Source of the DNA: an uncultured Planctomycetia bacterium
GTDB taxonomy: Bacteria > Omnitrophota > Gorgyraeia > 2-02-FULL-51-18 > JAGOUK01
Direction of reading: 5' to 3'
DNA: 64,000 nucleotides
Assembly (NCBI GenBank): GCA_964430735.1
Contig: CAYSFB010000005.1
Location: 110,390-174,389, forward strand
The notes under the pieces: model-generated
The model's input: the letters and a program-made list of their open reading frames with translations, nothing else
Databases searched by the model: none
What the model was told of the DNA's origin: nothing
Part shown: positions 8,526-40,300 of the stretch, piece by piece
How the letters are laid out: each line of letters starts with the position of its first letter
Position numbering within the stretch: position 1 is the first letter of the stretch
Program-made: the position numbers and the translations under genes

Positions 8526-9233
8526 TTGGACTGGATGAAAACCGCCGGCGCCGACCTCATCGGCGTCCAGGAAACAAAAGCCCACCCCGATCAACTGACT
8601 CCGACCCTGCGCAACCCGGAAGGTTTTTTCACCTCCTGGGCGTCCGCCGAACGCAAAGGCTACAGCGGCGTGGCGACTTTTTCCAAACGCCAGCCGGTCA
8701 AGACGACGATCGGCTGCGGGGTGGCGGAGTTTGATCTCGAGGGGCGGGTGATCCAGACGGACTTCGAGGACTTCACCCACTTCAACATTTACTTTCCGAA
8801 CGGCCAGCGCGACGACGTACGGCTCAAATACAAGCTCAAGTTCTACGACCATATCCTGGACGTGTTCGAGGGTTTGCGCCGCAAGGGCCGCAAGGTCGTG
8901 ATCGCGGGGGACGTGAACACGGCCCATCAGGAGATCGACCTCGCCCGGCCCAAGGAAAACAGCAAAACGTCGGGCTTTTTGCCCGTTGAAAGGGCCTGGA
9001 TCGACAAGCTGGTGAGCCTGGGGTACATCGACACGCTGCGCGTTTTCCGCAAGGAACCGGGCCTTTACACCTGGTGGGACCAGATCAGCCGCGCCCGCGA
9101 GCGCAACGTCGGCTGGCGCATCGATTACCACATCGTTTCGGCCGATTTGGCCCCCCATCTGGACGACGCCTGGACCGAGCCCGATGTCATGGGCTCGGAC
9201 CATTGCCCGGTGGGACTCAGGCTTGCCTTTTGA
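8526..9233 (+). CDS. xth: exodeoxyribonuclease III / AP endonuclease (the called TTG start is probably too far downstream)
   Basis: GVQETK, NIYFPNG, VIAGDVNTAHQEIDL, GYIDTLR, WRIDYHIVS and SDHCPV all match. The conserved N-terminal WNINGIR block is encoded in frame upstream (8484-8504) with no ATG, GTG or TTG. Confidence 0.85.
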   Translation: MDWMKTAGADLIGVQETKAHPDQLTPTLRNPEGFFTSWASAERKGYSGVATFSKRQPVKTTIGCGVAEFDLEGRVIQTDFEDFTHFNIYFPNGQRDDVRLKYKLKFYDHILDVFEGLRRKGRKVVIAGDVNTAHQEIDLARPKENSKTSGFLPVERAWIDKLVSLGYIDTLRVFRKEPGLYTWWDQISRARERNVGWRIDYHIVSADLAPHLDDAWTEPDVMGSDHCPVGLRLAF

Positions 9234-20605: not shown

Positions 20606-20633
20606 TTGATAGCCGCTGGTCCGTCATTATACT
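20606..20633 (+). promoter_or_regulatory. near-consensus sigma70-type promoter TTGATA-16 nt-TATACT in the 135-bp AT-rich divergent intergenic region upstream of the giant gene
   Basis: The -35 is at 20606-20611 and the -10 at 20628-20633, about 55 nt before ATG 20690. The region 20555..20689 is about 35% GC within a ~63% GC context. Confidence 0.45.
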
Positions 20634-20689: not shown

Positions 20690-22390
20690 ATGTCCTCAAA
20701 ATATCTGATCAGGAGCATTGCGCTCACTTTATCCATACTTTTCCCAATTCATGATCTTTGTTGGGCGGCCGCGTCGCGCCCCGGAGAAGCGGTTCCCGCC
20801 GCGCTTCCGGTCCCTGTTCCGACGGTTCAGGCCCTGACCGCTGATCCGCACCGCATCGAATTGCCGTCCGCCAGCATCCATCTCAAAGACGCCCGCCCCG
20901 GTACTGACGGCCGGCTTTTTATCCTGATCGAAGACCCCCACGCGAATTACGGCGGTCAGAAAAATATCTCCGCGGGCTTGAGCGCGCTTGCGCGGACGTA
21001 CGGAATCAAGACCGTCTTGCTGGAAGGCGGCGACCGCAAGGCGAATCTGGATGCGCTCAAGCCTCTGGTCGGGCCGCGCGAGCTGAGGATCGGCGCGGAG
21101 CAGCTGTTGCGCGAGGGTATTTTGAGCGGTCCGGAGCATTTGAGTCTGACGGGGGATGAGAAGATTGATTTTTACGGCGTCGAGAACGCCGCGCATTACC
21201 GTGCCGCGCTCCTGGCGTATGCGCGCGTGGCGGATCTGCGTAAACCGGCCGGCCGGGATCTGCACGCCGTCCGCAATGCGCTCGAAGCGCTCAAAGCCCG
21301 GCTTTATCCTGACACGCTGTTGGATTACGAAAATGACAAACGCTTGAATGCCGACTCCGATCCCTCGCAGATCGACCGGTTGTTCGATCTGGCCCGCAAG
21401 GCCGGCGCCGGGCTCGAAGCGTTTCCGTCGCTTGCGGCTATCGACCGGATCCGGTCCGCACAGTCCCGCATCGACTTCCGCGCCGTGAACCGGGAGCAGG
21501 AAAATCTTTGTGCCGCGCTTCACGCGACGCAGCATGCCGACGAGGCCGATTCGCTCGCGCGGGAGATCGGCCGCACGACTTCGCCGATCGAGCTCAAGCG
21601 CCTGATCGACCGGTTGCTCACGCTGCGGGGACACGTTGAGTACAACATGTCCCCGAATCTGGCCGCATACTCGGCTTATCTCGACTCCTTCAAGTCGATC
21701 GACTGGGGATCCGTGCTCACCGAATCCGAAGCGCTCGAAGCTCTGTCGTACAAGTCCCTCCTCGCCGACCCCGACGCCCGCAAAGTCGCCGTGCTCGACA
21801 TTTACCTGCGCTGGATGCAAAAAGCCTTTGACCTCGCGCTCACCTCCCGCGAGTTTGAACTCCTGAAGAGCAATCGTTCTCAATTTGAGGCCGGAGCATG
21901 GACGGGATTTTTGGAGAAAAAATCCGAAGCGCTCGGCATCCGGGACCTGCGCATCCCGAAGCAGCCCGCCTTTGACCGCGCCTGGCCTTCGGTCCGCGCT
22001 TTTTACTCCCTCGTAAACCTCCGCGACCGCGCCCTGCTCGAAAATGCCGGCAGGATCCTCGAAGAGCGCGGGGAAAAAACCGCCGTCCTCGTCGTCGGCG
22101 GTTATCACACCGAGCATCTTAAAAAACTCATCCAGAAGTCCGGCTCCGGCTGGGCGGTGCTCACTCCCCAGGTCCAGGCCGCGACGGACCGCGGGCAGTA
22201 CGAAAGACTTCTCCTGACCCCGCTCAACCGTTCTGCCCGCCGTGACGCGGCGTCTGCTGATCCCGTCAACATCGCTGTCCCGCTTCTCGCCGGCAGTCGT
22301 CTTTCCGCAGGTTTTGATCTTTCGGTAGAGCGTTCTTTGGGATCGGCTCCGGCTGCGGCTCTGCGCACTCTCCGTGCCGGCGAGCCCCGA
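20690..22390 (+). other. module 1 (567 aa): signal peptide plus conserved N-terminal domain shared with the ORF at 61729; tentatively TraB/ChaN/Tiki-superfamily-like
   Basis: ILIEDPHANYGGQ...VLLEGG...VLVVGGYHTEHL parallels VLLQDPHTNESGQ...VYTEGG...ALIAGGYHAPSL in the second gene. The superfamily call is tentative. Confidence 0.35.
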
Positions 22391-25300
22391 GGCGCGCGAA
22401 TGGCCGCTTCGGGAGACGTCGTGAGTCAGAGCCGTGCGGCAAAAGAGGCCGTTCTTCTGGAAATGAATCAGCTCCGAAAAAGCGGATTTGATTCATGGCC
22501 CCTGAGCCAAAGACTGGATTGGCTCAAGTCCTGGCAGGATCGTGAAGTCATCGAGACGTGGGATTGGAACGAACTGATGTCCGAGGCAGGTCTGACATTC
22601 GGGCCAGGTCGATCCGTTGTGCCCGATGTCGGTGAGCGGGGGGTCGGCGTATCCGTATTTGATAAATTCAAAATTCTCAGTATCTCCGATGGCGCCGGTT
22701 CCGCTCAGCCCCGCTTCCTGACCGTCAACGGGTCGCTGCATGATTGCATCGCCCTGACTCTTTTTGACCCGGCCGGCCGCACCGGAGTTCTGTTTCACCT
22801 GCACTATCTCCAAGACGCAGATACGGTCATCTCCCGAGCCATGACCGAACTGGCTTCGCAGAGGTCCGGCGCAGAGCCGCGTTGGCAGGCTCGATTGGCC
22901 GGCGGTTGGTCGGAACAGTCCGAAGATCTGGCGATCCGAATCCTGCGGGCTCTGGAGCAGCGTCAGATTCCCGTGGAGAGCATCGACATCCTGAGCAGAC
23001 CTGCCAGGCCGATCCAGGATGCGGTCGACAGCGCGTACGGCGGGGTTCGCCCTGTTTTGGATGTCGCGACGGGAGCGCTTTATGAGATTGCCCCCGGTCG
23101 ATCCGGCGCGCGGATGGCATCGAGGACTTTGCGGGCGGGCACGGCATCAGTCTTGTTTGCCGTTTTGGCTAATGCCTATGTGTATGCGTTGTTCCGACAC
23201 CACCTTGCGGGAGCCCTCGGCCCCTGGACGTCGGGAATCGTCGGATTTGTTGTCAACACATCCATCTTCTTAACCTTTTCGGGCTGGTTTAGGTGGAGCC
23301 ATCTATCCGAGGAAGCCGCGTTAAACAAGGTCCGGAAGGTTCGGTTGGACTTGATTCGTCGGGCAACACTTGCGGAGGACTGGAATCTGGTGCGGGCCCT
23401 CAAGCGCACGACACCCAAGATCGTACTCCCATCCGAGTATTCCAAAGTCGTTTACGGCGGTAAGCAGAATACCGTGAGCAAGTCGGGCAAAAAGATACGG
23501 CACATACTTCTCACGCCCGAACTGGCGGTCTCTGCGCAGGCGATCCGCTATCTTCTGGTGCGCCGTTCGTTGGGTTTTGATTACGATGAACAGGTTGCAG
23601 CCATCCGCTCCTCAGGGCGCGGCGACATCCCGTTCTTTACCGTTTGGCAGCGCTTTTATTGGGTGAGCTACTCGGACCTGGAGACCTTAAAGCGCGCCCA
23701 TATGTATCCGCTCTTCAGCGTTTACATTCTGGTTCACGGATCGCTCATGAATACCGTTGCCCTGACGGCCTCCATCGTGCTCCGGCTCTACCATCAGGTC
23801 TTGGGCGGCGCGAAGCGGGAGGGGGATATCATCACCGTCCCGGCTCTTGTGACCGGCGTTGCGGTGGCGACATATGCCTTGGGTTTGGTTGCCGAAACAG
23901 GCGGAAGGATGCTGATTGCCGCAGCCTCGGGCGCCAATCCCTGGGATGGGCTGGCCCATATCCAAATGTCGTTCGCCGGGCATCTGGCGGTGATGAATTC
24001 GCTTTTGTCCTACGTGTATCTCAGGGAAACGATCGCCAAGTTTGATTTGGATGCCCAGCCCGAACGATCAGGTGCGCGGTTGGCGGACAATCCGGCGGTT
24101 CAGCAGGCGTTTGATCCTTCGCGCGGTATGCTCACGGCCCAAGACCTGAGCGTGGAAGCGGCACCGGCTGTTTTGGCCGGACAGATCCGGATGGTGATGG
24201 AAAAAACCGGCAAGAGCAGGGATGTCATCGCCGTATTTGATCTCGACGATTATGGGCATCTTCGGAAATCCGCCGTGTCGGCCGGAGCCTCAATGACGGG
24301 CATCATCTCGCATGAGAGTCTCGCCATCCGCATGGCCGGTTTGGGCATGCGCTATTTCCAAAGCATGCTCATGGAACGCGACGCGGACGGCCGCGTGGTG
24401 CAGATCAACGTCATTCCACGGCTCATTTCTGCGGACGCCGACGCCAGACGATCCAGTTTCGGGCGGGCGGTTCTGCTAATGACACAAGTCGTTCGTGAAC
24501 TGGGTCTCGACCCCTCTCAGATCGTTACGAACGACTTTTTTTCCGTGAACAGCGCTTTTAAAACCACGCTCGACCGCGTCGCCGCTCATGCGGTGCAAAA
24601 CCAGTCCGAGATCAGGGAAACCGGTGCGCGGTTGGCGGATCGCGCGGAGTCCGCTGCCTTGAGCGATGCTGAAAAATCCAGGCTCACCCCCGAGTATCGG
24701 ACCGCGGCAGAGTTTTTTGACAACTTCGAACGTCTGAAGGCCGCTCATCCGGATCATAAGTGGATCGTGGTTGGCCGGCACATGGAATCCACGTCGAACC
24801 TGTTCCGATATCTTCAATCCTACATCACGTATTCTCCGCCGACCCTTCTGGGTCTGTTGCAGCGGTATTTTATGGGCCGGTTCTTGTCCGCCAAGGGAAT
24901 TCAGTTCGACCGCATCATCGCAAGCGATCTGGAGCGCGCCCACAGCCTGGGTCAAAAAGTGGCGGATCAAAACTCCGCGGCTGTTGAAGTGAAGCGGAGA
25001 CTGCGGGAGGTCATGACGATCTCTCTCGGCGGCATCCGCAGCGACCTGTTCGACGTCGCGCGCGAAGCGCAGCGGCTGCGTTTCATGTCTCACCCCGAAA
25101 ATTACGACATTCCGGGATATTCCGGAAGGGAAGTCACGACCTATATCCAGGAGCTTTTTTACAAAGACGTTCCGGGCCATGCGGCGCGGACGACGTTTGT
25201 CGCGACGCACGGCATGACGATCATTCTACTGCTCCATTATCTGCTGAAGATTCCGTTCGAGAAGTATGAAGCCGTTTTTAAAATGACCGGCAATTCGCCC

Positions 25301-28300
25301 AATGTCGGCCTGAGCGTCTTCTCCTACGACCCGTTGGAACGCTCTTGGAAAATGTGGGTGTATGCGGACAACTCTTATCTGCCCGCCTGGGTCCGGCCCG
25401 AAAGTACGGGCGGGTTCTTCCGCATGTTGGAACGGATTTTTTACGTCGGTCAGGGCATTTACCGCATCGGTTTGCGGATATTTGGGCATCAGGGTTATGG
25501 TCAGCCGGATTACTTTCCGCTGGTCCTGCCGTTCGTCCGGCCTTCCTCAGCCCAGATCCGGGTGCTCAGCAAGATGGCGCATCACGGCGTTTCAAAGGTC
25601 CGCCCATCCGGAGATCAGGCAAGCCCTCCGTTCCAAGGCGCGCGTCTGGCGCGCGGCGATCGGGAGCGAATGGAAAACGTGCTCCGCCGCGTCCGTTACC
25701 GCAGGGGAGTCCTGCCATCGCTGAAGGTGGCCGCTCAATTGTACGACGAGCATGGCCGGTATCTTTCCTCCGGCACCAACCGCACGGGCAGGCCGCATGC
25801 AGAGCCGGATGCCGTGCTCAATGCCTTTAAGCGCAAGATCCGCGATTCTAAAAAACAGGGAATAGATTCGGAGAAGATCCACCTGGCCGAAACAGTTGCC
25901 GACTATCTGCATCTTCGGTGGAGGACGCTGGATCGCGATACGGATGAAGTGACTTTAGCCCTGCTGGATTGGCTGAATCTGGCCCTGAACACCCCTCTCA
26001 AAAATGCATCGTTTTACGTGAGTCTGGATCCCTGTAAGCAATGCGCCGGGCTGCTGAGCCGTTTGGGCGTCCGGCAGGTTTTTTACGGAATGTACGATTC
26101 GAATCCGCTTCAGGACGGAAGGGGCCTCTCCATTTTGAATCAGAACGGCATTCAGGTGCAAAACCATCTGATGGAGCGCTCGTTCGAAATGGAGAATGCC
26201 TTGTTTGTCCGCGCCGTCAAACTCATGCCGGCGCTCTACCTCATGCTGCACAATGCCAGGAAAAATCTTTTCGCAGCATGGTTCCGGCACACGTATGCGG
26301 ACCGCTTATCCGGTCTTGAGCTCACGCTTCGGAAGCATCGTGAAATCGCCGATATCCTCGACGCGCCGCCGAATTCCCCCGTGCTGAAGCGGAACCGGCT
26401 TGATTGGCGGCCGATTCGACATCACACCACGAACATCGCCCAGATGCGGATGTCGATGCTCACTCGCAGCATCGTCAATCCGGATTCCAAAAACACCCGG
26501 GTTCTTTACGGAGGGGCCGGCACCGATTTGACCGGTGTTTTGGAGACTTTTGGACCTGCGGATGTTGCCATGGTTTCGTATTACCACGGGTTGCAAAAGG
26601 AGGATTTGCAGACTGCGATCGAGATTCTGCAGAATTCAGGCGAGCAACCGCCTCTACTGGGCGACCGGCGCGCTGACGAGTACCGCCGTGTAAAAACCGT
26701 CTATGGTTTTGGAACCCGGCATTATCTCGAAAACCGTCACGAAATCACCAATGCGCTCGCCATCGAATTGGCTGCGGTCGGAGCGGAGCGGGCCCGGGTT
26801 GATGTGGAATCGGAAGTGCCGAGACTTATTTTTGAATGTCCGGATCCATGGACCGGAAAACTCAGGACGGTTTCTGTGCTTTTCATCGAAGCGGATATTA
26901 CTGAGTCTGACCGGTATCCCGACGCTTTAAAGGAATGGATGCGAAGTGGGTTCGACGGATACTTTCAAAAAGCGGGGCTCAAGATCGCCCAGGCCTATTT
27001 GACTCGGCCCGAATATCTCCGCGGCATCTACGACCGCATGAAGCCGGAAGGGTATTTTGCAACCGATGATACGGCGTATGTGGAGTTCGATCCAGATGTG
27101 GAGGCGGACATCTTCCAGGACTTTTCGGACTATTTTCCGGTCAAGGACGGCATCCGGAGCATTTATCCCGATGGGCTGGGGGAAGTGATCCAGGCTCGCA
27201 TTGCGGGAGACAGCGCCTTTTCAAGCCGCTCCGAGTTGACCTTGCGGCAGATGTACGGCTTTTATCTCCGGCTGCGGCAAAAAAGCGTCGGCGCTCGCCT
27301 GGCCGCGCCCGGGGAAATCACCGACCTGCTGCCGGATCCGGCTCAAGCCCTTCCGTACGAACAATTGATGAGCAATTACAAAGGCTATTTGAGCGAAGGC
27401 TTGATGCGGGACGTTCTCGGGACCTACACGGCGCATTTTGTCCCCGCTTCGCTGGATCCGCAGGCCCGGGAGACGGATGCGCGGATCGTCCGCGAAAATG
27501 CCGGAAGAGGTTACGCCGATCTTCAGGTGACGCGGGTGCTGGACTACCACCGCTACATCGTTCCGATGATCCGTCAGTGGAAGACGGAACATCCTGACAA
27601 GCGTCTTCTGGTGCTCAACGTGGACACCCACGACGATCTGGCGACGTCTTATTCGTGGGTCAACGACGCGAACTGGGCGTATCGGGCCAACAACAGCGGT
27701 TTGGCCGACGTCTATCACGTTTATCCCGACGAGAATTTCCGCGCGTTCGAGTCAGACGCGCCGACGCAGCCCAAGGCGTTGAGGGATCTGGTGCTGAATC
27801 CCGAGATCAATCCGAATAGCTATGACGAGGTCTGGGTTACCATCGATTACGACTACTACTCCGCCCGCAGCGGGTATTACGCGGGCTCGTACAACCTCGA
27901 CCGGTTCGAGAGAGATCTGGAGCTGCGGGCGCTGACGGGTTTTTTCAGGCAAAACCGAATCCGGGTCTCCAAGGTTGTCCCGGTCATTTCCAAAGAATAC
28001 CTCTATCACATGGAGCCGGCCGATCAGACGAAGTTCGTGGAGGAATTGACCCTCCAGATCCATGAAGCATTTGAGCAGCTCTCCCGCAGCCAGACCGATT
28101 ATCCGGCCTCAGACAAGCCGTGGACGGTCGAAGTCCCCGAGGGAGAGTCCTATTGGGAATTCGCGATGCGCCGCTCGCTGGGTATGGGCGCGCGGCTGGC
28201 CGGCGATCCGACGGATCAGCATGGGCGCATCGTCGAGTTGTTGGAAAAACCGGACACGCGCCTCGTCCGCATGCCGAGCAACGGCTTCGACCGGTACCGT

Positions 28301-31300
28301 ATCGAGGCCGCGGACGGCGGCGTTTTGTACGAGTTGGTGGGCCAAGAGTCCGGCTCCGGTCTTGCGCCTGTGTGGCTGATCGAGCCGATCGACCTTTCCC
28401 GACTCGAAGCCGGCGACGCGCGGATCATCCTCGACTTCCGCACCGAACCAGAAAAAACACAAGCCTTCGATGCTCTGGTCCGCAGCAAGGCGGAGCATGC
28501 TGCGGCCGCAGAGGATCCAGGCGTGCATGCGGATTATCTGCAATCCTCCATCAAGAGTTATCTCGATGCCGGGCTGCTGAATCCTCCAGCCTCTTCGACC
28601 GGCGATCTTTTGGCCGATCACTTTAAAGGAGCGTCGGTCCTGAATATCGGTCTGGAAACGGATGAGTACGGACAGTTGCGGGACAAAAATATCGTGACGC
28701 ATCTCAGGTCGCGCGGAGTGGACGCCGTCGGCGTCGATCCGCAGGCCCCGAACCGGCCGGATCTGGGACTGGTGAACGGTCTCGCGCAGAGACTCGACGT
28801 CCTGCCAGCCGATCGGTTCGATTGGGCGGTGAGCATCGGTCTCTTCGATCCCGGATTCATCGAAACACGGTTCATGAACGGCCGCCGCGCTTTTACCGAC
28901 GAGAGTTATCGCTCCGTGGCGAACGGACTTCGGCGCGTACTCAAGGACGGCGGACGCTTCCTGGTCAACACTTACAGCAATCCGAACGACAAGCTGACGC
29001 AGGCGCTCATCGACCGCGGATTCGTGCGGATGGAACAGGTAGACGGAACCGGAACCAGGATCTATATCAACCGCAAGCCCAAGCCCTCTCTCATGGAAGA
29101 CCCGGCTGTCCGCCGTTTTATGAAAAAGTTCGGCCTCGACGGCGCGCGGCTGTCATCCGCCCTATCAGATGTCATAGATGGCCGGGAAGGAGCTTACACT
29201 TCTCTTTGGGTGGAACTTTATCCGGTCATCATTCGGAAGATCGATTCGTTTGTCCAACGTGCCGGCAGCCCGACGGATCTGGACGTCAGCCGCATACAAG
29301 ATCACGTTGAGCAGGGTCTGCGGCGCATGATCCTGGAACAAGTCCGTTATCGCGAGAACATCAACTATGCTTTGATCCACACCATGATCCGCCGGAGGAT
29401 CATCGACAGTGCGAGGTCTCAGACCGGATTCAAGCGGGCGCGTCAAGTCCGTACTTACTCATCTGATCCGGCTGATATGACGGATCTTTGGCGCGACGAT
29501 CGACCGTCTGCGGAATCTGCTGCGGGTGATTCCACCGGTCCTTCGGCGGTAGTGAGCCAGTCCTTGGACCGGATGCTGAGCTTGGCCATTCAAGAGTATT
29601 TGGACGCTGCGCATGCCTACAGTCCGGACAAGCCGCGGAGCATCCTCAATCTTCTTTTGGGCGTCGGCCGGGATCGGGCGATCCAGATCAACAGGCCTTT
29701 ATTTGCGGCTGTGGCAAAACAGGCAGGCATATCCCAATCCCGGGTCTCTCAAATATGGAGCGGATATCTCAAGTATATCGTGGCCCATCCATCACATCGG
29801 CAGGAAATGATATCGCTGGTTCAGTATTATCCGTCGTGGCTCAATCCTCGAGATCGACGCTTCATGGGACATCAACGGTTGGGTGCGCGGCTGGCCGGCG
29901 TTTCGGAGCAGGATTTGAACGGGTTCGTGAGGTTCATCCTGTCAGGCCGGTTCGAGCCTTTTGATCCGGAGCACACGCGCATCATGGCCCGGGCATCGGA
30001 ATCGGGATCCGATGATCCGGTCACGGCCATGATTCTGGAATCGACCGACCAAGGACAGCAAAAATTGCAAACGCTGGCGGTGGTGAACCGCGAGGGCCGA
30101 TTGGTCGCGGGGGCTACCGTCAGCATGTGGTTCACCGGCGGGAAGAAGTGGCTGAACGTCATCCGCATGGACACGTATGAAAAAGGCCGGAGTTACATGC
30201 GCCGAGCCGCGCGGCAGTTGCTGGTGCAAGGCCAGATCGATCTGTGGAGGTCCAGCGACAATCTGTCCGCCGCCGGAATCAAGCTGCATACCAGCTTCGA
30301 GGGAGACGCCGAGATCGGGGTGCGCCGAGACCTCGGGGCGTACGATCTTTATCTGAAGCCGCAGACGGGCGCGCGGATGGCGGACGCTGATCTGACCGGA
30401 GAGCTTCGTTGGAAAAGCTGGTTCCGGCCGTGGATGCTGGATCTCGAAAAACCGGAGCAGCTGAATCTTTTCTTGCGCCGCCTGAATTTTCTTTCGGGCC
30501 TTCCGGGGTATCACGCTTCGAGAATGCTGGTTTCGACGGCTGTCCCGCTTCACATTTTTCAGGTGCCCGTTTTTAAGGCGAACTCCGCGTGGATGATGGG
30601 CTTCATGGCCGCTCACCTGATTCTGACGGCAAGGGGTAAGCGGTTCACGGAGGAGCAGAATTTGCGGATGCAATACGGCCGACCGGTGCTGCAGACATCC
30701 GGAGCGTTCCGTTACACCCAGCATCCATTTTATCTGGCCTATTTTTCGGTCTACCTGACACACTTTTTCATTCAGCCCAACTGGTTCTCGTTCGGGGCGA
30801 TGCTGAGCATGGCCGCTTTTACCGCGCTCCGGATCGTCGTCGAACAGCACGAAATGTGGGCCCTGCACGGCAATAAATATCTGGCGTATTGGCAGTCCAC
30901 CCCCATCCTGTTTCCCTGGACCCGGCCCGGCGGCCCGTCCGGCGCGCGGATGGCCGGTGATTCGGATCGGGCCAAGCGGATCCAGTCCGGACTCACCCGG
31001 GCATTGGCGGAAAACGCACGATTGCTCAGAACCATCGCTCGGGAAGGCGCGATGCCGGAAATCGATCTGGAAGAGTCGGTGCGCTTCGAATTCGGCGACG
31101 ATGGGCGCCTGGGCAATCTAGGGCTGATGGATCGCGGGCGATACACGCCCATCGGCAGAGAAATTGCCGTCCGCATCATCCGCGCAGGAGCCCTCATTCT
31201 CAGCGAATATTCTGATCGTTACCGGCTGAAGGACGGAAGTAAAACGGTCTACGTTCGAATTCAGGAGCCGTCCCTCTCACCGGCGGAAGAGGACGGCCGC

Positions 31301-34300
31301 GAACCGGGTGACTCCAGTCTGATCGAATCGGCCCGCAAAGAAATCCAGATTGCATGGAACGGGCTCATGGATCTCTCCAAAGACTGGACGATGGATCATC
31401 CGCAGTTGAATGCCTTGTCACATCTGCTGTCAGGCCTGATGACCTTAAACTCTCATTTGAGACAAATGATGAACAACGGCCCGCCCAGCGCCGAATCTAC
31501 CGCCCTTATCCACGAACGAATCCAAAATTGGGCGATCCCTCAAATCAAGGGCGCCATGAGCTTCCTGACTCAAAGCGATCTCCGACAGGCATTGAGCCCT
31601 TCTCAAAGAGTCGCTCTTCTGGGAGATGACGGACCGCTTCTCAAGGCCCAGGCCTATCTCCGCCGGTTTCTCGGCGCGCGGATGGCGACCGCGCGTTTTG
31701 TGGAGGATGGATGGACGGTGCTGCGCCGGCTGACCGACGCGGATTTTGGAGCAGGCGCGTCGCCTGAAGCTCGCCGATTTATGAGGGAGTATTCCGCCTT
31801 CAAGAACGGGTCCAAATGGCATGCCCAGCGCTTTGCTCATGAGATCGTTTCGCTGATTCGAGAAAAGGAATCGCTCTCGGACCTCTCGGAATGGGCAGTT
31901 GTCACGCCGCGCGTGATGAGCCGGAAGACCCCGGCTGTGCACGCTCTAGGCGAAAGCATCGCTTCCCAACTTGGAATCACGCACGTTCCCCTGTGGAGGA
32001 ACTCGCCTCGCGAAAACGGCGAGCATTACTCCCGCATTGCCACGGCCGAGGAGCGGATGCGATTCAAAACAGAATCCGCCGGCGACCTGATACTTTCCGA
32101 AGAGTTGAGAGGCAAAAAAATCCTGCTCATCGACGATCTCATCACGACGGGAGCGACGCTGCAGTCGGTGAAGCGCTTTTTGGAAGAATCCAACGGCGTC
32201 CGGAGCATCCGCGTGTACGCCGCCGCTTCGCTGGAGACCGACCGTGCGGACCTCGAATACGAACTGAACACGAATCTCATGAACCTGGCTGCGTTCGAGC
32301 TGTTGGACGCGATTTGGTCGGCATTCCTGCCCACCCATCTTGCGCTTCAAACGGTTCTGACACATGTCCATTTTGACCGTCTGGTGAGCGCCCTGTCTTA
32401 TCCGAGTCTGCAGGCGATCACCCGCGCAGCGCATCGGTATTTTACCGGATTCCGGAATCCGACACCCGAAGAACAGCGACGAATGGATGTCGTCGGATCG
32501 GAACTGAAACGCCGCGCCAAAGAGCATCGGGAAACGGCCGAGCGAATCGACGTCCACGCGTCGTTTCGCCGCGTTCCCGGACTCGGGTCGGGGATTCCCG
32601 TCGCGTTTATCGCCAAAGGCGACGGCGATGCCGCCTATCGTGCCTCACGGATCGAGACGCGCAATACCGCTAATCCGGGATCTCCAGCACAGGCTTTTGG
32701 TAAGCGCCGCGAATTCCGAGAAAACGGCTTTGTGGCTGTCGGCGAATTCAGCGACAACGGTTCCGTATCACACCAGTGGAAAATAGAATTATGGGACCCC
32801 AGAGGATTCGCCCAAAGAGGGGATGAAGCGATCCTGGGACTGCAGGACGAAATCAGGATCGTTCGTATGTCCGACGGATCGCTTGTGCACACGATCCGGC
32901 ATCCGAAGTTAACATCCGTACACACCATCGAACTGAACCCCCGCGACCCCAATCTGGCGCTGATCACCGCGACGGGTTCCGACAGGATCCTGGAAATCGA
33001 CCTCCGAGACGGGTCGATTGTTTGGGAGTGGAACCCCTGGAGGAACGGATACGGCGTCAACAAGCTCGGCTTGAGGATCTTCGAGGACGGCGATCCGCTG
33101 CCAGCCGGAGCGGCCGTCATCGGATTTGAAGAAGCGAAACGCAGGATGGAATCCGGTGAAGCGGTGCGCGAAGAGGAGAATCTGGTCCATGTTGTGAGTT
33201 TTGACCGCCCCGATGCGATCCTCGAAAAATGGGAAAAGACCGCGAGTCCGAACTGGGCCGGATACGGTCCCGACGGAACCATTCTTGCGACCTTGTTCCG
33301 GGTTAATCAGGCCGTGCAGATCGACCGCGCCGGCGGCGTCCGCGTGCTCTATGACGATCTTCGACGCCCGCACGCAATGATCCGGTATAAAAACGGTTAT
33401 CTGATTCCCGACACGATGAACGGACGGATTGTGATCCTTAAGGACGACTTCACGCTCGATCAGGTTTATGACTTATCCACCTTTCCGAACGAGCGCAACC
33501 TTCCGCATCGTTCGTACGAATGGCTCCAGTTCGCCCATCCGATATCGGACGATCTGATCGCGGTGGTCGATTCTCGCCGGAACAAAGTGTTCGTGCTCGA
33601 TCCGGAAAATTCTTTATATTCGGAATATCCCTATGACCCGAATCGAACGATGCAGGCGGTCCTTCCAGTGGTCGATGCGTCGGCCGCGCGGCTGGCGGCT
33701 CCGAAGACGCACGATTTATCCGATACGATCGGGAAGCAGATCGATGCTCTGGACGAGTTCGCCAGGCAGTCTTCGGTCCGAGTGCAGTACGAGAGCGAGC
33801 CGGAGCGCATCGAATTCGTTGATCCGAATTACGAAGAACGGTCCGGTCAATTCCAGCTGGGATCCGCGATCTTCCACGTCTTGGAAAACGCCATCAAATA
33901 TTCTCATCCCGGAGGCGCGGTCGCGGTCCGGACCCAGCGCGAGGCGGATGGAACGATCACCATCTCGATCCGCGACAGCGGGATTGGGATCGAAGAACCC
34001 TATTTATCCAATGTTAAAAAGGGGGTGTTGTATTACCGGCACCCCGCCGCCCAGCGCCACGCGAGAGGCAGCGGCCGCGGTCTGGTCGTTTCCAAGGAAA
34101 AAATCGAGCGGGTTTACGGAGGGACGTTTGAGATCCAAAGCGGAGGCTGGTCCGACGGCACCTCCGTCACGATGAGGTTCCGACCCGGCAGCCCGTCCGG
34201 CGCTCGGTTGGCCGCGTTTCAGGCGGACGCGGTGGCCGCGTTGCTGCGCATGGCGAACCAAGAACAGGATCCTGACAACAAGAAGTCGATCGCGGACTAT

Positions 34301-37300
34301 GCGGCATCTCTCGCACGGACCCGACTTCTTTTTGAGGGCCCTCCGATCGGCATGGATCCGGAGGAAGCCGCCGTCCGTGCCGGCCGGATCGACCGGATGT
34401 TGTTCGAAGCCGCCAAGAACCGGCGCAGTAAATTTGACAACAGCCCGCTCGGCACCGATTTGAGTCAACGCTCGACGCATTGGAACGATTACCGGGTCTC
34501 AATAGACCGCTTCTTTGGATATGTATCTGATCGCGATCAGGAGGAGAAGAGCGCATCCGGTGCGCGTCTGGCGGACGGCGGGAATAACGCTGGACGCGCG
34601 GGAGATTTAGCCAGGGCTTCCGACCCTTTGAGGGAATTGGAGAAGTTCGAAGAGATCTCCCTTCGGATTTACGATTCAGGGCTTGACGTCAATTCAAAGT
34701 CCATTCAGTCCGAGGAAGAGCTCAAGATTTGGGGCGACTTGCACAGAGCACAGTCCGAAGCGCTTCGCTGGATATTGCTTGATATTGAAAAAAATCCGAT
34801 CGGCCATGATGGAGAATTACTGCGATCAGCGATTATACGCGCCAAGGACCTCAACGGTAACATCACCCGACTTTTGGGACGTACCGCATGGCGAAAATTC
34901 TCCGTCTCCGACTCTATTCAGCTGGCGGCTGTCAAAGCATTGAATCAGACTTTTGAGCAGAATAAATTAAATATCGAAAGCCTCGCCTATTATTTGAGCG
35001 CGCAGGTGTATGACCCAAAAAGCGTTCAGCCGGAATGGATTCGTGAGCTGGAACAGTCGCTTTTGGTTTATCAGTTGAACCATCTTTTATTTTATCTGAC
35101 GGAATATATCCAGGAAGACGAGGAATCCATCCGGGGTGAGAAGCTGATGCTTCTCAGGTCCATTTTGAATTGGGTCGGCGGATCCACTGTGATGCGGCAG
35201 TATCTCAGCGCAGATATGCCGGACGGGCAAGATGAGGATATCCAGCGTCTGCAAGACCTCCTCGCTAAGGCCCGGGCCGCAGTTGACGCTTCAGGCGCGC
35301 GGCTGATGGAAACATATGCTGCGGCATTGGCGCGTTTGAATGCCGGAACTCCGGACGTCGCGACTTCCAAAAATACCGGGATGGATATGTCTTCCAAGTT
35401 CAGACATCCGCAGCTGATCGGCGAGTTGAAGCGGCTCAGAGATGAATGGGAAAAGAAGCCCGTGCTTTTTCCTCGTGAAGTGGTTGTCATCGGTCCCGGA
35501 TCGAGTTATCCGTCCGTTCAAAACGCGGATAAGCAATCCTATCAAATGGTCGAAGCGGCAGTCGGATTAGGGTTGGGCAACAGCGGCATCCGTTTTACGG
35601 TCCTCGACGAATTGGAAAGGGTGCTGGATGTTGTTGACCAAGCCCGGCATCCCGCTCTGATTTATGAGATCGAACCCTTCGACTTGAAAAAGATCACTGA
35701 CCCCGAATCGGATGCGCGTTCCGCGTATACCGTTTTTGCCTCAGAATTAGAAGAGTACCGGCAGCCGACGTCCTCCGGCGGCGAACGCTACGTCATTCCG
35801 TTCGACAGGTTTTCACCCCACCCCATCGAGAGGTTCCGCGGTCACGTCGAAAAGCTGGAGTATCCGGAAGCGTCGGCGGACCTGATCGTGGCGACGCACG
35901 TTTTTCAGTGGGCGTTCGAGTCCGACAAGACGATGGTCAATCGGTTCGATCTCATGGCCAAAGTGATCAGGTCGCTGCGTCGGGGAGGGGAGCTGATCAT
36001 CGACCAGGCCACATTCAGTTATGTGCAGGACGACGCCCGGCGGCGTCACTTCGAACGCGAAATGTCCAACCGGGACCTCTCTGTCGACGTCCGCCCGAGC
36101 GGGAACCTGGTGGTGATCCGCCGCATCGGCGCGCGCCTGGCGGCGAAGAGCAGCTTTTTGGCGAAAAGGATCCTGGGCCAGTATCGAGGCTTGGATGCCA
36201 GGATACGACGGCTTCAGAACGCCTACCCGAACGGCTATCGCGGATCGATAGACCAGGACGCGAGAGGGGAGCAGGTTCGCGAAAAATTCATCAGACTGAT
36301 CCGGGTCGGCCGCAGCGTCCGTCAGAACCTGGAGATCATGGGCTTTTCAGACATTGCCGGTGAACTTCATGCGAGGGTCAGGAGGCTTATCGAAGCGATT
36401 CAGAACAGCGAAGACGGGGTGTTACCGGCTCAAATGCAGCAGATGAAGATGATGCTTGCTTTGGAACATGGAGATCTCGATGCCTTCCAGTCCGATCTGG
36501 AGGGGTATCTGACGGGTAAGAACGTGCCGGTTTTCCGTGATTTGAACGCAGATGACCGCCGTCTTCAGATCGAATTCATGATTCGACAGGCGGGCGATCA
36601 CTTGTCGGTTTGGGGAAGCGCTTCCGAAAAAATTCTGGCGGAGCTCACGTCCCGGGCAGTTGCCGCGCATGACCATCGATCGATTCGTTCGATCTCTCGG
36701 GCGAGAAAATACTTGAAGGGCTGGATCAAGGCCGCCAGTGAAAAACCGCTGACGTATCCGGAGCGATTTAGGATACCCAAAGGGTACTCCGACTGGAGCA
36801 GGGCATACCCCGCCTATCAACCGCCTTATTATGTGGCGCTCGAAGTTCTGAGAAGCATTTATGGCGCGAGCCCGAACGGATATGCGGATCCGGAGGATTT
36901 GTCGCAGCTCCAGGGTAAATTCGCCAGCTACGAGGGGCCGGTGCGCTTCGAGACTTTGAACGGCAAGCAGTATCCCCTGAATCCCCGGGGAAGGCATGGA
37001 ATTCGCGGTCGGGGGCTTTTGGGCCGCTGGGGAGCCAATTTTGCAGCGGATCCTTTGGTCACCCGCATCAACCCAACAACGAATCGGCTGGAGTTCTTGG
37101 CGGTTCAGCGTGAGGACACGGGCCAGTGGTCGATTCCCGGAAGATTGATGGCACGTGATGAAGATATCCCAACCGCATTAAAAAATGCCATTCAGCGCAA
37201 AACGGGATTGGCGCTGAGTTTTGAGGGTGCTGAAGAAATTTATCGGGGTTACGTCGAGAACCCCAGAAATACCGATCACGCCTGGATTGAGACGGTGGCG

Positions 37301-40300
37301 ATGCATATTCATCTGACAAAGGAACAAGCGGTCGAGACCGACAAGGTTCCCATGCGGGGAGAAAGCGGAAGTCTCGTGAAGTCCGTTCAATGGCTGGAGC
37401 CGACCCCTGCCGTATTAAGCCATCTCTATGCCGATCATGCCGACCTCATTCGGTCGGTGCTAAACGGGTCTGAGCGTACAGGCGCGCGGATGGCGGAGCG
37501 GACGGCACAAGAGGTTCTCCGCAAACACCTGGATCGGCAATTGGGGGCCGATCAGATCGCGCGGGTCGAGTATGACTCGAGCGTGGCTCCGTTTCATCTG
37601 ATGCTGGCTTTTGGTCGTGATGGAAAAAACATCGGGTTGGCGGTCGTCAAAGACGGTGTTTACGCTCCGCATTCCATCGAGTTGGCGGAGGGCGGCACGC
37701 GATTTGAGGCGCATCCCCATCGCGATGGTATACAGGTGGTCACGTTTGACGGACCGACCGACGCCGATATCGTGGACGGTTGGATCCTTGGCAGGATCGG
37801 GACGAACGGCGAATGGGGCATCGAAAGCATCATCGATAATCGCCGGCCGGTTCAAGTACCGCTGGCCGTTTTGTTCTCGGACTGGCCGATTCTGCCGGCC
37901 AGCCCCGGCGGTGACGACGGCAGGGAATCTCCGGCCCGGGTTCAAGCCGCCGTCATGGATTCCTGGAGGGCCCTCGCGTCGGATGATGTGCAAAAAGCAC
38001 GCGCCATACTCGACAGACTTCCGCCGGATCGCACAGCTTACAAGATCATCGGGCCGGATGATTTGGCCCGTGTCCGCAGCGTAGTGAACGGGACCACCTA
38101 CCGTCAGGCCGGCTGGCTGCGGATGGAATTCTTCGCAACGGATGGCGTGCGCCGGCTGGGTCTCTCCGAAGCGGATCTGCGGCCATCCGCCAACATTTTG
38201 CCGATCGAGAATGTCCTTCAGCATGTGTTGACCAGGGGCGAAAAGGCGGTATTGCTGCTGTACCGCGAGCCGGGTCCCGCCGGAGCGATTCGATTCTTTT
38301 GCTTCGATTCGGGTCCCGGCATGGACATCGATCAGGTCGTAAATCACGGGTATCGCGATCCCGAAACGACGATGCTCGGCAGAGCCATCCAGTTCATGAT
38401 CATGTCCCGGTCCAAACATTGGATTCTGGGGTCCCGCAACCAGGTTTGGGATCAGGATCAAAAGACCGTTCGTCCCATGCACATGAATATGCCGGAGCGC
38501 GGCGTGTTGTTCGCGTCGCATTTTGCGCAGCCGTCGGGGGCGCGGCTTGCCGATGCGGAAGACGACCCGGAGAGCGTGCTGTCCGATTCTTCCGCCTTGC
38601 CCGCTGAGGGCGGAGCGATGATCGGCAAGAATCCGGCCGTGACTCCGGATGAGCGCCGCCGTGTGCTTGCCGAAATTCTCGGAGACGCCCCGCGGCTGGA
38701 ATCGCTTGCCTGGTCGGTGGTAAGGAACTCGGGATTTTTGCAAGACACCTCGCTGTATGCGGATGCGGTTCAGGAAGTGCTTCAACACGTCCAGCGTAAT
38801 CGACAGACCATTCTCGACCACTATCAGCCCGAGAGCAGGTCGACTCCTCCGGCTGACTGGGTCATGGGGTATATGAATCTCCGGCTTCGGGACGTACGCC
38901 GCAATCAGCTGCGGTATCAATCGCGATTCAAGCGGCAGGCGGATATGAGGTCCGACAGCCGGAACGAGGACGGGGACGGCTTGAGCGTGCTCGACAGCCC
39001 GGCCCCGACGCCGGACCCGAGCGACAGCATCGCCGGACGCGAGAGCGTGATTCTTTCCGGATTCTTTGTTCAGGCGCTGTCCTCTGATTTGCGTGAGATT
39101 TATGAGGCGTATTACATCGAGCATAAGACGATGGCCGAAATAGCCCGGCTGACAGGACTTCCGGAAGGTACGGTCAAAACACGTCTCAAGGCCGTCCGCG
39201 ATCGCATCAAAGGACACTTTTTGAACGGCGACCACGTGGAACGGGATAATCCGCGCGAAGAAGCGCTCATGGATTACCTGCGCCGCCTCCGCCGAGAAAA
39301 GAAGCTCGACGAAGCCGACTGGCGACTGGTCCGGCTGTTGATCTCGGGACTGCCTGACGAAGAGATCGTGCTTGCGATGAGCGGGGAGTTCGGGTTGGCC
39401 CGGGAAGGGGTCCAGGCCCTTGCGGAGCATGTGATTCGGCTCATTCGAGCGGAAGACAGACCAGTTCTCGAGGAAGACATCCGCCCGACACCCGACGAAC
39501 TCGAAGAATACAGCTTCCTCGAAACGCTGCGCAGGGTCCGCAAGAGGAACAAGCGCCTCCACGCCGAGCATATGGATTCGATGATCCGCAAAAGCACTTC
39601 TGCCGCACGGCTTGCAGAAAAATCGGAGTCCATGGACCAGCTTTATGAAAATCTGGGTCCTTACGGCCGTTATGCGGCCGGCGCTCTCACCGGATTTTTT
39701 CTTCTGCCGATGCAGACGTTCGCTCCGATGTCGGCCGACACGATCTGGGTGCATCGGAGCATCGGGGTTGCGGCCGGACTTGCGGCGGCATGGATCTGGG
39801 GCTGGCGCTACAGACGCAAGCACCGGCAGGCTGACGGGAAAGGCGCCGTCATTCCGGCCACCGCGGTCGAGAGAAGGCGTTATGGGTGGGAGGATCTCGA
39901 GCGGGAAGGGTATTCGGTCGTGATCGAGGAAATCCGGGGTGATGGGCGCCAAGAAACAACGCTGTCGGGCTACGTGACCCAAAAGTCACCGGGCCAAAAC
40001 GTCCCCCGAAGGTTGGAAGGGTCGCACTTCCTCATTTCGATAGACGGCTTTAAAAATATCTACATTCACTTTTTTTACCCGGAATTCCCCATGCCTAAGA
40101 CTGAGGCAGAAAAGGTCGGCCGCGGCGCGGCCCTGCTGCGGCATATTCTGGACCCGAAGAAGTATGCCGGTTACAGGATTTTTGCCGATGCAAGTCCCGA
40201 GTTTATGAGCTCATTTTCCCGGATGACGGACTTCCAGCCGAGTGTGAGGAGCGGGGACCGCGAAGCCTTCGATGCCTTTGTCGTCAATAAAGTCAGAGAT

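Follow-up and report, generated by a model that had tools for sequence, protein, structure and literature searches.

An 11,777-residue open reading frame from a PVC-group bacterium, divided into diverged protein-sized modules by 35 copies of a short peptide tag

The DNA analysed here, referred to as the window, is a stretch of 64,000 nucleotides (nt) from contig CAYSFB010000005.1 of assembly GCA_964430735.1. One open reading frame (ORF) on its + strand, 20690..56023, runs uninterrupted for 11,777 codons, and the translation carries 35 copies of a short peptide tag, which is found in this giant ORF most commonly as S-G-A-R-L/M-A. The first-pass annotation of the window had described one part of it, 24623..37480, as a cluster of nucleotide-metabolising modules. 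This interval is enclosed entirely by the giant ORF, where it makes up modules m05-m18 (14 modules), and its boundaries, 24623 and 37481, are two of the 35 tags. All positions are those of the window.

20690..56023, + strand: giant ORF, 11,777 amino acids (aa), with a hydrophobic signal-peptide-like N-terminus, 35 modules (m01-m35) and a 9-residue tail (ORF list and translation)
22391, 23105, 24071, 24623, 25637, 27290, 28187, 29141, 29882, 30368, 30941, 31673, + strand: tag starts, first part (motif scan)
33683, 34199, 34559, 35294, 36128, 37481, 38537, 39602, 40382, 41462, 43172, 44402, + strand: tag starts, second part (motif scan)
46907, 48689, 48998, 50150, 50936, 51302, 52565, 53204, 53816, 55295, 55994, + strand: tag starts, third part (motif scan)
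24623..24637, + strand: tag GARLA, at the end of m04 and the start of the interval
25637..25651, + strand: tag GARLA, between the phosphatase and deaminase modules
37481..37495, + strand: tag GARMA, directly after the NUDT9-like module, 7 residues past the end of its match in the Protein Data Bank (PDB)
55994..56020, + strand: terminal tag and tail, AARLA-SISA, followed by the stop codon (translation)

The tag follows the pattern [GA]-A-R-[LM]-[A/S/M], and all copies have the same frame and orientation. With alanine or serine at the fifth position it occurs 34 times in the giant ORF, compared with 0.43-0.5 expected from composition or shuffling; the window's 21 other ORFs, 9,096 residues in total, contain none. 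At the DNA level the 14-mer GGCGCGCGGMTGGC, with one mismatch at most, is present 26 times in the window (0.28 expected), and 24 of these 26 lie in frame within the giant ORF. The final tag is located 8 residues before the stop codon and the N-terminus has none, thus the tag marks the C-termini of the modules. The 12 residues on each side of the tags are less hydrophobic and contain more disorder-promoting residues than the remaining protein, i.e. the surroundings of the tag are linker-like in composition. All matches to Pfam, NCBIfam and PDB entries in the giant ORF are confined within single modules and none crosses a tag, domain matches often stopping a few residues short of it (5 residues for HATPase_c, 7 residues for the NUDT9 match).

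The modules are 103-835 aa long (median 299, mean 336), lengths that are usual for bacterial proteins. At least 10 distinct domain families were detected among them and no module is repeated. No paralogy between modules was found at E<1e-3, and for this lack of mutual similarity a reading of the ORF as a repeat array was dropped. Outside the interval, the giant ORF encodes an extracytoplasmic function (ECF) sigma factor (3e-10); it also has HEAT repeats (2e-19), an entire HPr and helix-turn-helix (HTH) motifs in an array. The units are strongly diverged copies of ordinary cellular domains: phosphatase, deaminase, phosphoribosyltransferase (PRTase), methyltransferases, GHKL ATPases, ECF sigma, HPr, HEAT and HTH.

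The GC content is even (0.55-0.62) across the giant ORF and its surroundings. Logan contigs of run SRR14271366 reproduce the sequence of the window with 100% identity, including the 3' part of the giant ORF, the gene being broken there at window position 48983. An artefact of one assembly is therefore ruled out. A megasynthase was likewise ruled out, as the Pfam scan of the giant ORF gave no non-ribosomal peptide synthetase or polyketide synthase domains. Within the first half of the ORF, sites resembling promoters or terminators are as frequent as in shuffled sequence, and the best promoter-like site (20606-20633) is located in an AT-rich spacer directly upstream of the giant-ORF start codon.

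Four modules of the interval had attracted attention as nucleotide-type enzymes.

24623..25636, + strand: m05, divergent histidine phosphatase of branch 1 (Pfam His_Phos_1 at nt 24842-25357)
25637..27289, + strand: m06, zinc deaminase of the cytidine deaminase (CDA) fold in the N-terminal ~150 aa, then ~400 aa of no known function (Pfam dCMP_cyt_deam_1 at nt 25667-26092)
31673..33682, + strand: m13, type I PRTase (ComF-like), then ~370 aa of no known function (Pfam Pribosyltran at nt 32090-32227)
36128..37480, + strand: m18, N-terminal helical domain of ~200 aa, then a NUDT9-like domain (nt 36743-37459) with a degenerate Nudix box at nt 37139-37210 (PDB and fold match)

Profile, PDB and fold searches placed all four families (phosphatase, CDA deaminase, PRTase and NUDT9-like) where the first-pass annotation had put them. 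Its remark that these modules are internal and followed by a junction tag, and do not occupy a C-terminal toxin position, agrees with the map of tags and modules. The description as a cluster did not stand: such modules are 4 of the 14 in the interval, with only two of them adjacent. Counted along the chain, 0, 6 and 4 unrelated modules lie between the four, so that the idea of a dedicated cluster finds no support; together the four are neither a demonstrable pathway nor a toxin array.

Module m05 belongs to the branch 1 superfamily according to Pfam His_Phos_1 (E=1.3e-13, 51.5 bits against a cutoff of 21.7). Its motifs are GRHMESTSN (24773-24799), DLERA (24926-24952) and ATHGMT (25202-25219). 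The core R-H...R...E...H is kept and the acidic residue is present, but RHG reads RHM. Of the specific NCBIfam models (CobC, GpmB, SixA) the best reached 2e-7, those of CobC/GpmB type giving 2e-7 to 1e-5, far under their cutoffs.

Module m06 exceeds the cutoff of Pfam dCMP_cyt_deam_1 (E=2.9e-8, 34.0 bits against 25). Both HAE and PCxxC are intact, in RPHAEPD at aa 1701-1707 (nt 25790-25810) and DPCKQCAG at aa 1780-1787 (nt 26027-26050). The gap from HAE to PCKQC, ~76 residues, is longer than expected for the CDA fold. The best specific models are housekeeping ones, RibD (TIGR00326, 6.8e-17) and TadA (1.6e-4), with RibD 2b3z as the PDB match (2e-6). The module is not a RibD equivalog, since TIGR00326 gave 61.7 bits against a cutoff of 156 and only the deaminase part aligned. 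The toxin-type models MafB19-deam and Bd3614-deam remained under their cutoffs.

Module m13 is above the cutoff of Pfam Pribosyltran (E=1.2e-7, 31.6 bits against 26.3). Its phosphoribosyl pyrophosphate (PRPP) loop, KKILLIDDLITTGATL at nt 32114-32161, is intact, and within it ILLIDDLITTGATL has the acidic pair followed by TTG-x-T that is typical of type I PRTases. The ComF model TIGR00201 matched at nt 31814-32221 with 1.9e-8, but the 34.5 bits obtained, against a cutoff of 233, exclude membership of the ComF subfamily. PADLOC gave matches to ShosT (5e-8), limited to the PRPP-loop region, and PsyrT (4e-5). A reading of the locus as a defence system was dropped, as the PADLOC matches are to a generic PRPP loop and ATPase only. 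With their motifs kept, the phosphatase, deaminase and PRTase modules may be active enzymes.

Module m18 gave no Pfam match at E<0.05. In phmmer searches against the PDB its C-terminal 240 residues (nt 36743-37459) matched human NUDT9 (1q33, E=8.3e-28; query residues 206-444 against chain residues 12-273, covering cap and core) and Nematostella TRPM2 (E=1.1e-27). An AlphaFold model based on 16 sequences had a mean pLDDT of 77.6, with core blocks mostly >90 and eight N-terminal helices. The best folds found for it by Foldseek were TRPM2 and NUDT9 (E about 1e-14), with NrtR (3gz8) and an AraR-type protein (5deq) lower down. In HMMER and MAFFT alignments to the NUDT9 box the Nudix box of m18 is GRLMARDEDIPTALKNAIQRKTG, which departs from GX5EX7REUXEEXGU and its metal-binding glutamates: within REx2EE, substitutions have removed the arginine and each of the three glutamates (RE to KN/NA, EE to RK; R to N, E to A). 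Outside the box, the signature stretches GRGLLGRWGANFAADP and NPRNTDHAW have been conserved. The first-pass annotation had cautioned that some positions of the box were substituted, and rightly so, the catalytic glutamates being missing on careful alignment; its designation of the module as an ADP-ribose pyrophosphatase is therefore not supported. In NUDT9/NUDT9H chimeras the substituted NUDT9H box abolishes hydrolysis of ADP-ribose and leaves binding intact (PMC4974056). Given these data and a box that lacks the REx2EE glutamates, m18 appears unlikely to act as a pyrophosphatase, and a role in binding only is what is best inferred. The module is probably a ligand-binding domain, which most likely binds an ADP-ribose-like ligand without hydrolysis, in the manner of NUDT9H in TRPM2 or of the Nudix domain in NrtR.

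The name eukaryote-type, also given to this module, did not hold up. An exhaustive representative search returned 2,209 NUDT9-like relatives at E<1e-3, mostly proteins of ~300 residues on contigs of bacterial type, and a metagenome scan with the m18 alignment returned >435 loci, mostly stand-alone ORFs of this length, among which no G[AS]R[LM][AS] tags were found. Those contigs for which called genes were listed carry bacterial genes (LptF/G, SmpB, TsaD/E, alanine racemase); as far as these sequences tell, the NUDT9-like family is not eukaryote-specific. The residues RE..EE are kept in 126/150 representative relatives and lost in 24/150, and those without them include most relatives embedded in long multi-module proteins (P0001, P0003, P0004, P0018, P0029, P0051, P0061). 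Many of the latter group share the ...x-K-[TI]-G variant of the box with m18. It seems that m18 is no eukaryotic import but a member of a minority subgroup, bacterial and with its box rewritten, that is sited in long multi-module proteins in the cases examined.

The tag itself was also found outside the window. P0018 (L001, GCA_020429935.1), a 2,156-aa fragment open at both ends, aligns with the whole of m18 including the helical domain. Its DNA is of 46% GC and encodes five G-[SA]-R-L-[SA] tags, against 0.04 expected, at intervals of 363-593 aa. The codons of these tags are mixed (AGA/CGC/AGG for Arg, CTT/CTG/TTG/CTC for Leu). Selection there is therefore on the peptide, and the tag is conserved as a peptide across lineages. 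The whole two-domain m18 module is likewise present in P0003 (3,817 aa; L003/L012). This protein repeats a different linker, (G)DMPLPGKIPG, which is frequently in tandem and has RQHD[IL]TRQ after it. Junction repeats may thus be lineage-specific. P0106 (4,960 aa, complete) and a 4,758-aa ORF in L059 have the m01 head at the N-terminus together with a NUDT9 module. The C-termini of related giants resemble the tag: AARLASISA here, SARVTSINA in P0106, and LATARSA, AVRSAS, SLRSAA and VLLRAA. This small sample (P0106/L010, L059, L075, P0003 and the giant ORF), compared without statistics, suggests a class-wide C-terminal signal.

The explanation towards which we lean, by a modest degree, is that the giant ORF of a bacterium of the Planctomycetes-Verrucomicrobia-Chlamydiae (PVC) group belongs to the class of multi-enzyme giants and consists of about 35 tag-ended units, with the tags as processing sites. 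It would be one transcription and translation unit, served by the promoter-like site upstream of its start codon. The tags, located in linkers, would be recognition sites for post-translational processing, and many or all modules would be released as separate proteins, as from a polyprotein. The scissile bond could follow the A of G-A, the R, or the final A, the last of which would leave ...AR(L/M)A-COOH. Processing at the tags, taken by itself, falls slightly short of what we would call probable. We infer it because sigma factors, HPr and PRPP-, S-adenosylmethionine- or ATP-dependent domains could hardly work when locked in a 1.3-MDa chain with membrane modules, because five or six fixed residues followed by variable ones form the pattern of a protease site, and because a passive linker has no need of an invariant A-R or of a copy placed 8 residues ahead of the stop. 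The 35 tags, the unrelated protein-sized modules and the lack of any domain match across a tag are also as expected of polyprotein junctions. A bolder version, which we hold only tentatively, is that the bacterium expresses about 35 proteins from one 35-kb gene, among them sigma factors, an HPr, kinase-type ATPases, methyltransferases and nucleotide enzymes, as a true polyprotein cut at S-G-A-R-(L/M)-A. Several related giants have an ending of this A-R-x-A type at their actual C-termini, and the tags would be reiterated C-terminal signals for a C-terminus-directed processing or sorting machine.

Two other readings of the tag were considered. Internal start codons were rejected: the L/M codon is NTG in 33/35 tags but mostly CTG, and no Shine-Dalgarno-like motif was seen in the 12 bases upstream of each tag. 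Double-glycine cleavage of the C39 type, after the G-A of G-A-R, is only a possibility; the upstream hydrophobic pattern of such leaders is not present at the tags and no C39 domain was found in the ORF.

Several points weigh against the explanation given above. Searches of the giant ORF and the window with Pfam, NCBIfam and the PDB detected no protease domain, and the only candidates are weak (a homologue of the head module with a ChaN/Tiki match at E=0.013, and a CheD-like module at E=0.75). Giants which share the head or the NUDT9-like module with the giant ORF, i.e. P0106, L059, P0003, P0001 and P0004, have no such internal tags, and any processing of them must depend on other signals. The uniformity of the tag codons could mean a role at the DNA or RNA level, or that the tag has recently spread or been homogenised. 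The scores of all enzyme-like modules fall far short of the trusted cutoffs of specific families (NCBIfam); their activity is uncertain and there may be pseudoenzymes among them. As to the host, IspG is 94% identical (83% at the nucleotide level, syntenic over 3.1 kb) to that of a metagenome-assembled genome (MAG) named "uncultured Planctomycetia bacterium" and 77% identical to that of a "Candidatus Omnitrophota" MAG. Because of this split the placement is made at the level of the PVC group, in either Omnitrophota or Planctomycetota as judged by IspG. Cleavage at the tags is a plausible prediction from sequence.

The strongest alternative, although still an unlikely one, is a giant scaffold that is anchored in the membrane and never cut, in which the tags would be no more than conserved linkers, motifs on which, for instance, a chaperone or the export machinery docks, or places where arginine is modified. 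Transmembrane (TM)-like segments are indeed spread along the chain (aa 10-28, 817-1068, 3366-3384 and 8814-8832), published giants likewise average many TM helices, and HEAT-repeat modules suited to scaffolding are present. The failure to identify a protease in the Pfam and NCBIfam scans and the existence of tag-free relatives also fit this alternative. However, the invariant A-R and the terminal copy of the tag would be superfluous in a passive linker, the module sizes mimic those of independent proteins, and sigma factors and HPr, which presumably act as free proteins, are hard to square with permanent tethering.

The enzyme-like modules had also been called typical of polymorphic-toxin tips and of NAD/ADP-ribose signalling. 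The corresponding alternative, an exported multi-effector polyprotein for toxicity or predation, similar to MARTX, whose modules would be freed at the tags in prey or host to hit nucleotides and regulators, is improbable. No RHS, LXG, TPS, PAAR, RTX, cysteine protease domain (CPD) or other known trafficking, delivery or autoprocessing domain was found with Pfam and NCBIfam. The N-terminus is signal-peptide-like, and Omnitrophota have been proposed to be predators or parasites with giant proteins linked to prey attack. The PRTase loop matches the defence toxins ShosT and PsyrT, but the part that matches ShosT is the generic PRPP loop only, and the PRTase matches ComF and Pfam models at least as well. 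The deaminase has sub-threshold matches to MafB19-deam and Bd3614-deam but is nearer to RibD and TadA. A membrane methyltransferase and cofactor-dependent modules would moreover be typical of the producer's own cytoplasm and membrane. The neighbouring genes, among which the first-pass annotation had seen no obvious immunity genes, bear it out: no immunity-like gene, secretion system or protease is present among the genes flanking the giant ORF, the adjoining ones being AsmA-like (upstream) and mqnA (downstream). The enzyme modules should thus not be read as an array of toxin tips.

Very little probability is given to a function of the tag in the nucleic acid, where GGCGCGCGG(A/C)TGGC would be a recombination or microhomology site fusing cassettes in frame, or an RNA-level signal, and the peptide would be incidental. 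This alternative could account for the choice of tag codons, which are near-fixed and far more uniform than in the rest of the ORF (GGC 22/29, GCG 29/35, CGG 28/35, CTG 18/23 of Leu; z about +5 compared with the codon usage of the ORF), for the 26 occurrences of the 14-mer against 0.28 expected, and for modules as unrelated to each other as captured cassettes would be. It does not explain why the L001 fragment keeps the peptide G-[SA]-R-L-[SA] with mixed codons, why all copies in the window share one frame and orientation, or why the exchanges at the variable positions (G/A, L/M) are conservative in terms of amino acids. Neither inverted repeats nor genes for recombinases were noted in the vicinity. 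Over the 35 tags the near-fixed sites read GGC GCG CGG A/CTG GCG, with a GCGCGC core; examples are seen at 30368-30382 and 43172-43186.

That the four modules form a dedicated unit for salvage of, or signalling by, nucleotides, NAD or ADP-ribose is the least probable of all: NUDT9-like modules do sit together with nicotinate phosphoribosyltransferase (NAPRTase), nicotinamidase, NMNAT and NAD synthase in P0001, P0004 and P0106, and the best sub-threshold models of the phosphatase (CobC) and the deaminase (RibD) both belong to cofactor biosynthesis, but m18 is flanked by methyltransferase-like and unmatched modules and not by NAD enzymes, the four are scattered as described, the PRTase is ComF-like type I and not a NAPRTase, and the Nudix box of m18 is catalytically dead by sequence.

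The proteins with NAD enzymes deserve mention of their own. P0001 (on an ENA ERZ1426844 contig), P0004 (L002 290-12316) and P0106 (L010 401-15283) hold near-complete NAD salvage in single proteins of 2,900-5,000 aa, and the neighbours of P0001 on its contig are further fusions of 2,895 and 3,894 aa with SdhA-like, radical SAM and PHP domains.

The remaining modules of the interval, and those outside it that could be characterised, are as follows.

20690..22390, + strand: m01, head module (BLASTP to P0106, 1e-18; phmmer matches to two L059 ORFs)
22727-22801, within module 22391-23104, + strand: m02, Cys/His motif NGSLHDCIALTLFDPAGRTGVLFHL (aligns with the CheD catalytic region, PDB 2f9z_C, E=0.75)
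27290-28186 and 28187-29140, + strand: m07 and m08, no significant family (no Pfam or NCBIfam match; sole match a weak PADLOC mad2, 0.0036)
29141..29881, + strand: m09, weakly ECF sigma-like (Pfam Sigma70_ECF 0.0028 at nt 29150-29461, under the cutoff; TIGR02937 0.015)
29882..30367, + strand: m10, no match (Pfam, NCBIfam)
30368..30940, + strand: m11, hydrophobic, ICMT/PEMT-like membrane methyltransferase (NCBIfam isoprenylcysteine methyltransferase 5.4e-7, nt 30686-30919)
30941..31672, + strand: m12, no match (Pfam, NCBIfam)
33683..34198, + strand: m14, lone histidine-kinase-type ATPase, HATPase_c (Pfam 8.2e-16, nt 33854-34183; PDB PhoR 8h70, 1.6e-7)
34199-34558 and 34559-35293, + strand: m15 and m16, no match (Pfam, NCBIfam)
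35294..36127, + strand: m17, class I methyltransferase-like (Pfam Methyltransf_11 5.2e-5, 24.2 bits against a cutoff of 21.2, nt 35825-36001)
48689-48997, + strand: m27, complete HPr of 103 aa with a tag on each side (Pfam PTS-HPr 3e-13)
51302-52564, + strand: m31, array of four or five HTH motifs ~100 aa apart (best model IS630 transposase N-terminal HTH, 4.5e-10)

Six modules of the interval (m07, m08, m10, m12, m15 and m16) thus have no Pfam or NCBIfam match. Module m11, which contains the TM-like segment at aa 3366-3384, also matched Pfam ICMT (9e-4) and PEMT (0.003). In m19-m20 (37481-39601) a GHKL-like D-x-G-x-G motif, FCFDSGPGMD at 38297-38326, directly precedes an ECF sigma module (TIGR02937, 3e-10), and the order looks like that of an operon in which an anti-sigma kinase comes ahead of its sigma factor. 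The HPr module m27 keeps the equivalent of His15 (GGIHLHPS), the equivalents of Arg17 and Ser46, as aligned by eye, being His and Glu. A transposase catalytic domain is not present in m31.

The head module m01 recurs at the N-termini of other giants with NUDT9 modules, just past a signal-peptide-like start (L010 401-2000; L059, on both strands). It has the conserved pattern I[QE][DE]xH..AQ[KQ]NI..LEG..FY..R..GG[FY]HTE, which we take to resemble TraB/Tiki/ChaN, a presumption backed by a single weak match of one homologue to the Pfam ChaN/Tiki superfamily (PF04187, borderline at E=0.013). The structure model of m01 had a pLDDT of 39.6 and was unusable, and PDB profile searches with 2 or 4 homologues gave no match. 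Module m02, close to the N-terminus, is possibly a Cys-His hydrolase. With patterns from modules 1-3, scans over genome and metagenome collections gave no relatives. A collection of 5.8 billion proteins queried with modules 17-19, the head module and a tag profile gave no match either, but the word prefilter was swamped and this result is not evidence of absence.

The giant ORF is flanked by chromosomal housekeeping genes. Upstream are those for a glycoside hydrolase family 2 (GH2)-like protein, inositol-phosphate synthase, IspG, MurI, RNase PH, Ham1, an SNF2 helicase and an AsmA-like protein, and downstream those for MqnA, SdhCAB and ThyA. Two adjoining ORFs without a Pfam match, 523-1143 and 1165-1935, have near-identical ends, FYFDDIRYE and FYLDDIRYE, and look like paralogous secreted proteins upstream of the GH2-like protein of 1,699 aa (2084-7183).

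Giant PVC genes have been catalogued in thousands, and whether their products act as one chain or are cut up was left open for want of cleavage points. Giant proteins of Omnitrophota were described to hold highly diverged HEAT, methyltransferase, HATPase_c, NUDIX and metabolic enzyme domains, and further PVC phyla, among them Planctomycetota, were noted to have proteins of at least 10,000 aa (West-Roberts et al. 2023, bioRxiv 10.1101/2023.11.21.568195). In the same work cleavage was raised as a possibility from C39 and S8 peptidase domains, the cleavage points being stated as unknown. A later catalogue of 5,761 giant proteins (bioRxiv 10.64898/2026.06.07.730766) defines a "multi-enzyme" class and a regulatory co-occurrence module centred on PF08241 and PF02518, both of which are present in the giant ORF. 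The words cleavage, linker, motif and junction are absent from the text of this 2026 preprint, and regular junction tags are mentioned in neither of the two. If the reading of the tags as processing sites is true, they supply the cleavage map that the earlier work called missing. With 35 regularly placed candidate cut points, located between domain matches wherever domains are detectable, the cleavage question becomes directly testable.

Compared with MARTX and polymorphic toxins, the giant ORF has in common the many enzyme-like domains in a very long, probably exported chain. It differs from MARTX in having neither RTX repeats nor the Peptidase_C80 CPD (none at E<0.05, Pfam), and from polymorphic toxins in having no RHS/LXG/TPS delivery domain, C-terminal toxin tip or adjacent immunity gene. 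Module m18 resembles human NUDT9 and the NUDT9H domain of TRPM2 in cap and core, has the same fold and keeps GRGLLGRWGxNxAADP and PRNTDxAW. It shares with NUDT9H a substituted Nudix box, which in NUDT9H means binding without hydrolysis (PMC4974056), but its substitutions go further, with all three glutamates and the arginine gone. Unlike both, m18 is bacterial, lies in a giant ORF and is preceded by the ~200-aa helical domain, which is common only to other giants. Nudix regulators of the NrtR/AraR type are similar in that a Nudix fold binds ADP-ribose or a sugar without a working box (fold matches 3gz8 and 5deq), whereas m18 is of the NUDT9 subtype with a NUDT9 cap and has no DNA-binding domain in the module.

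Viral and engineered "fuse-and-cleave" polyproteins are likewise composed of unrelated protein-sized units with a short conserved linker motif, one copy of which is near the C-terminus. The giant ORF is, in contrast, a gene of a cellular chromosome, its units are regulatory or metabolic and do not serve replication or form a capsid, and its cleavage sites are putative. From the Archaeovorin type (West-Roberts et al. 2023) it differs in being smaller than the proteins of at least 30,000 aa underlying that description, in having a different head module, and in that no C39/S8 peptidase, SecA_DEAD, glycosyltransferase or glycoside hydrolase was detected by Pfam and NCBIfam. The giant ORF best fits the multi-enzyme giants of the PVC group ("class 1 multi-enzyme metabolic clusters"). 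Like these, it is a single ORF of >10,000 aa (here 11,777 aa) in a PVC-group genome, with many diverged Pfam families of which none dominates, including HEAT_2, Methyltransf_11, HATPase_c and a NUDIX type, and with a hydrophobic N-terminus, scattered TM segments and an open question of cleavage. It departs from them in its strictly repeated junction tag. The class of giant PVC multi-enzyme proteins was already known, and the unusually explicit punctuation by tags is what sets this one apart.

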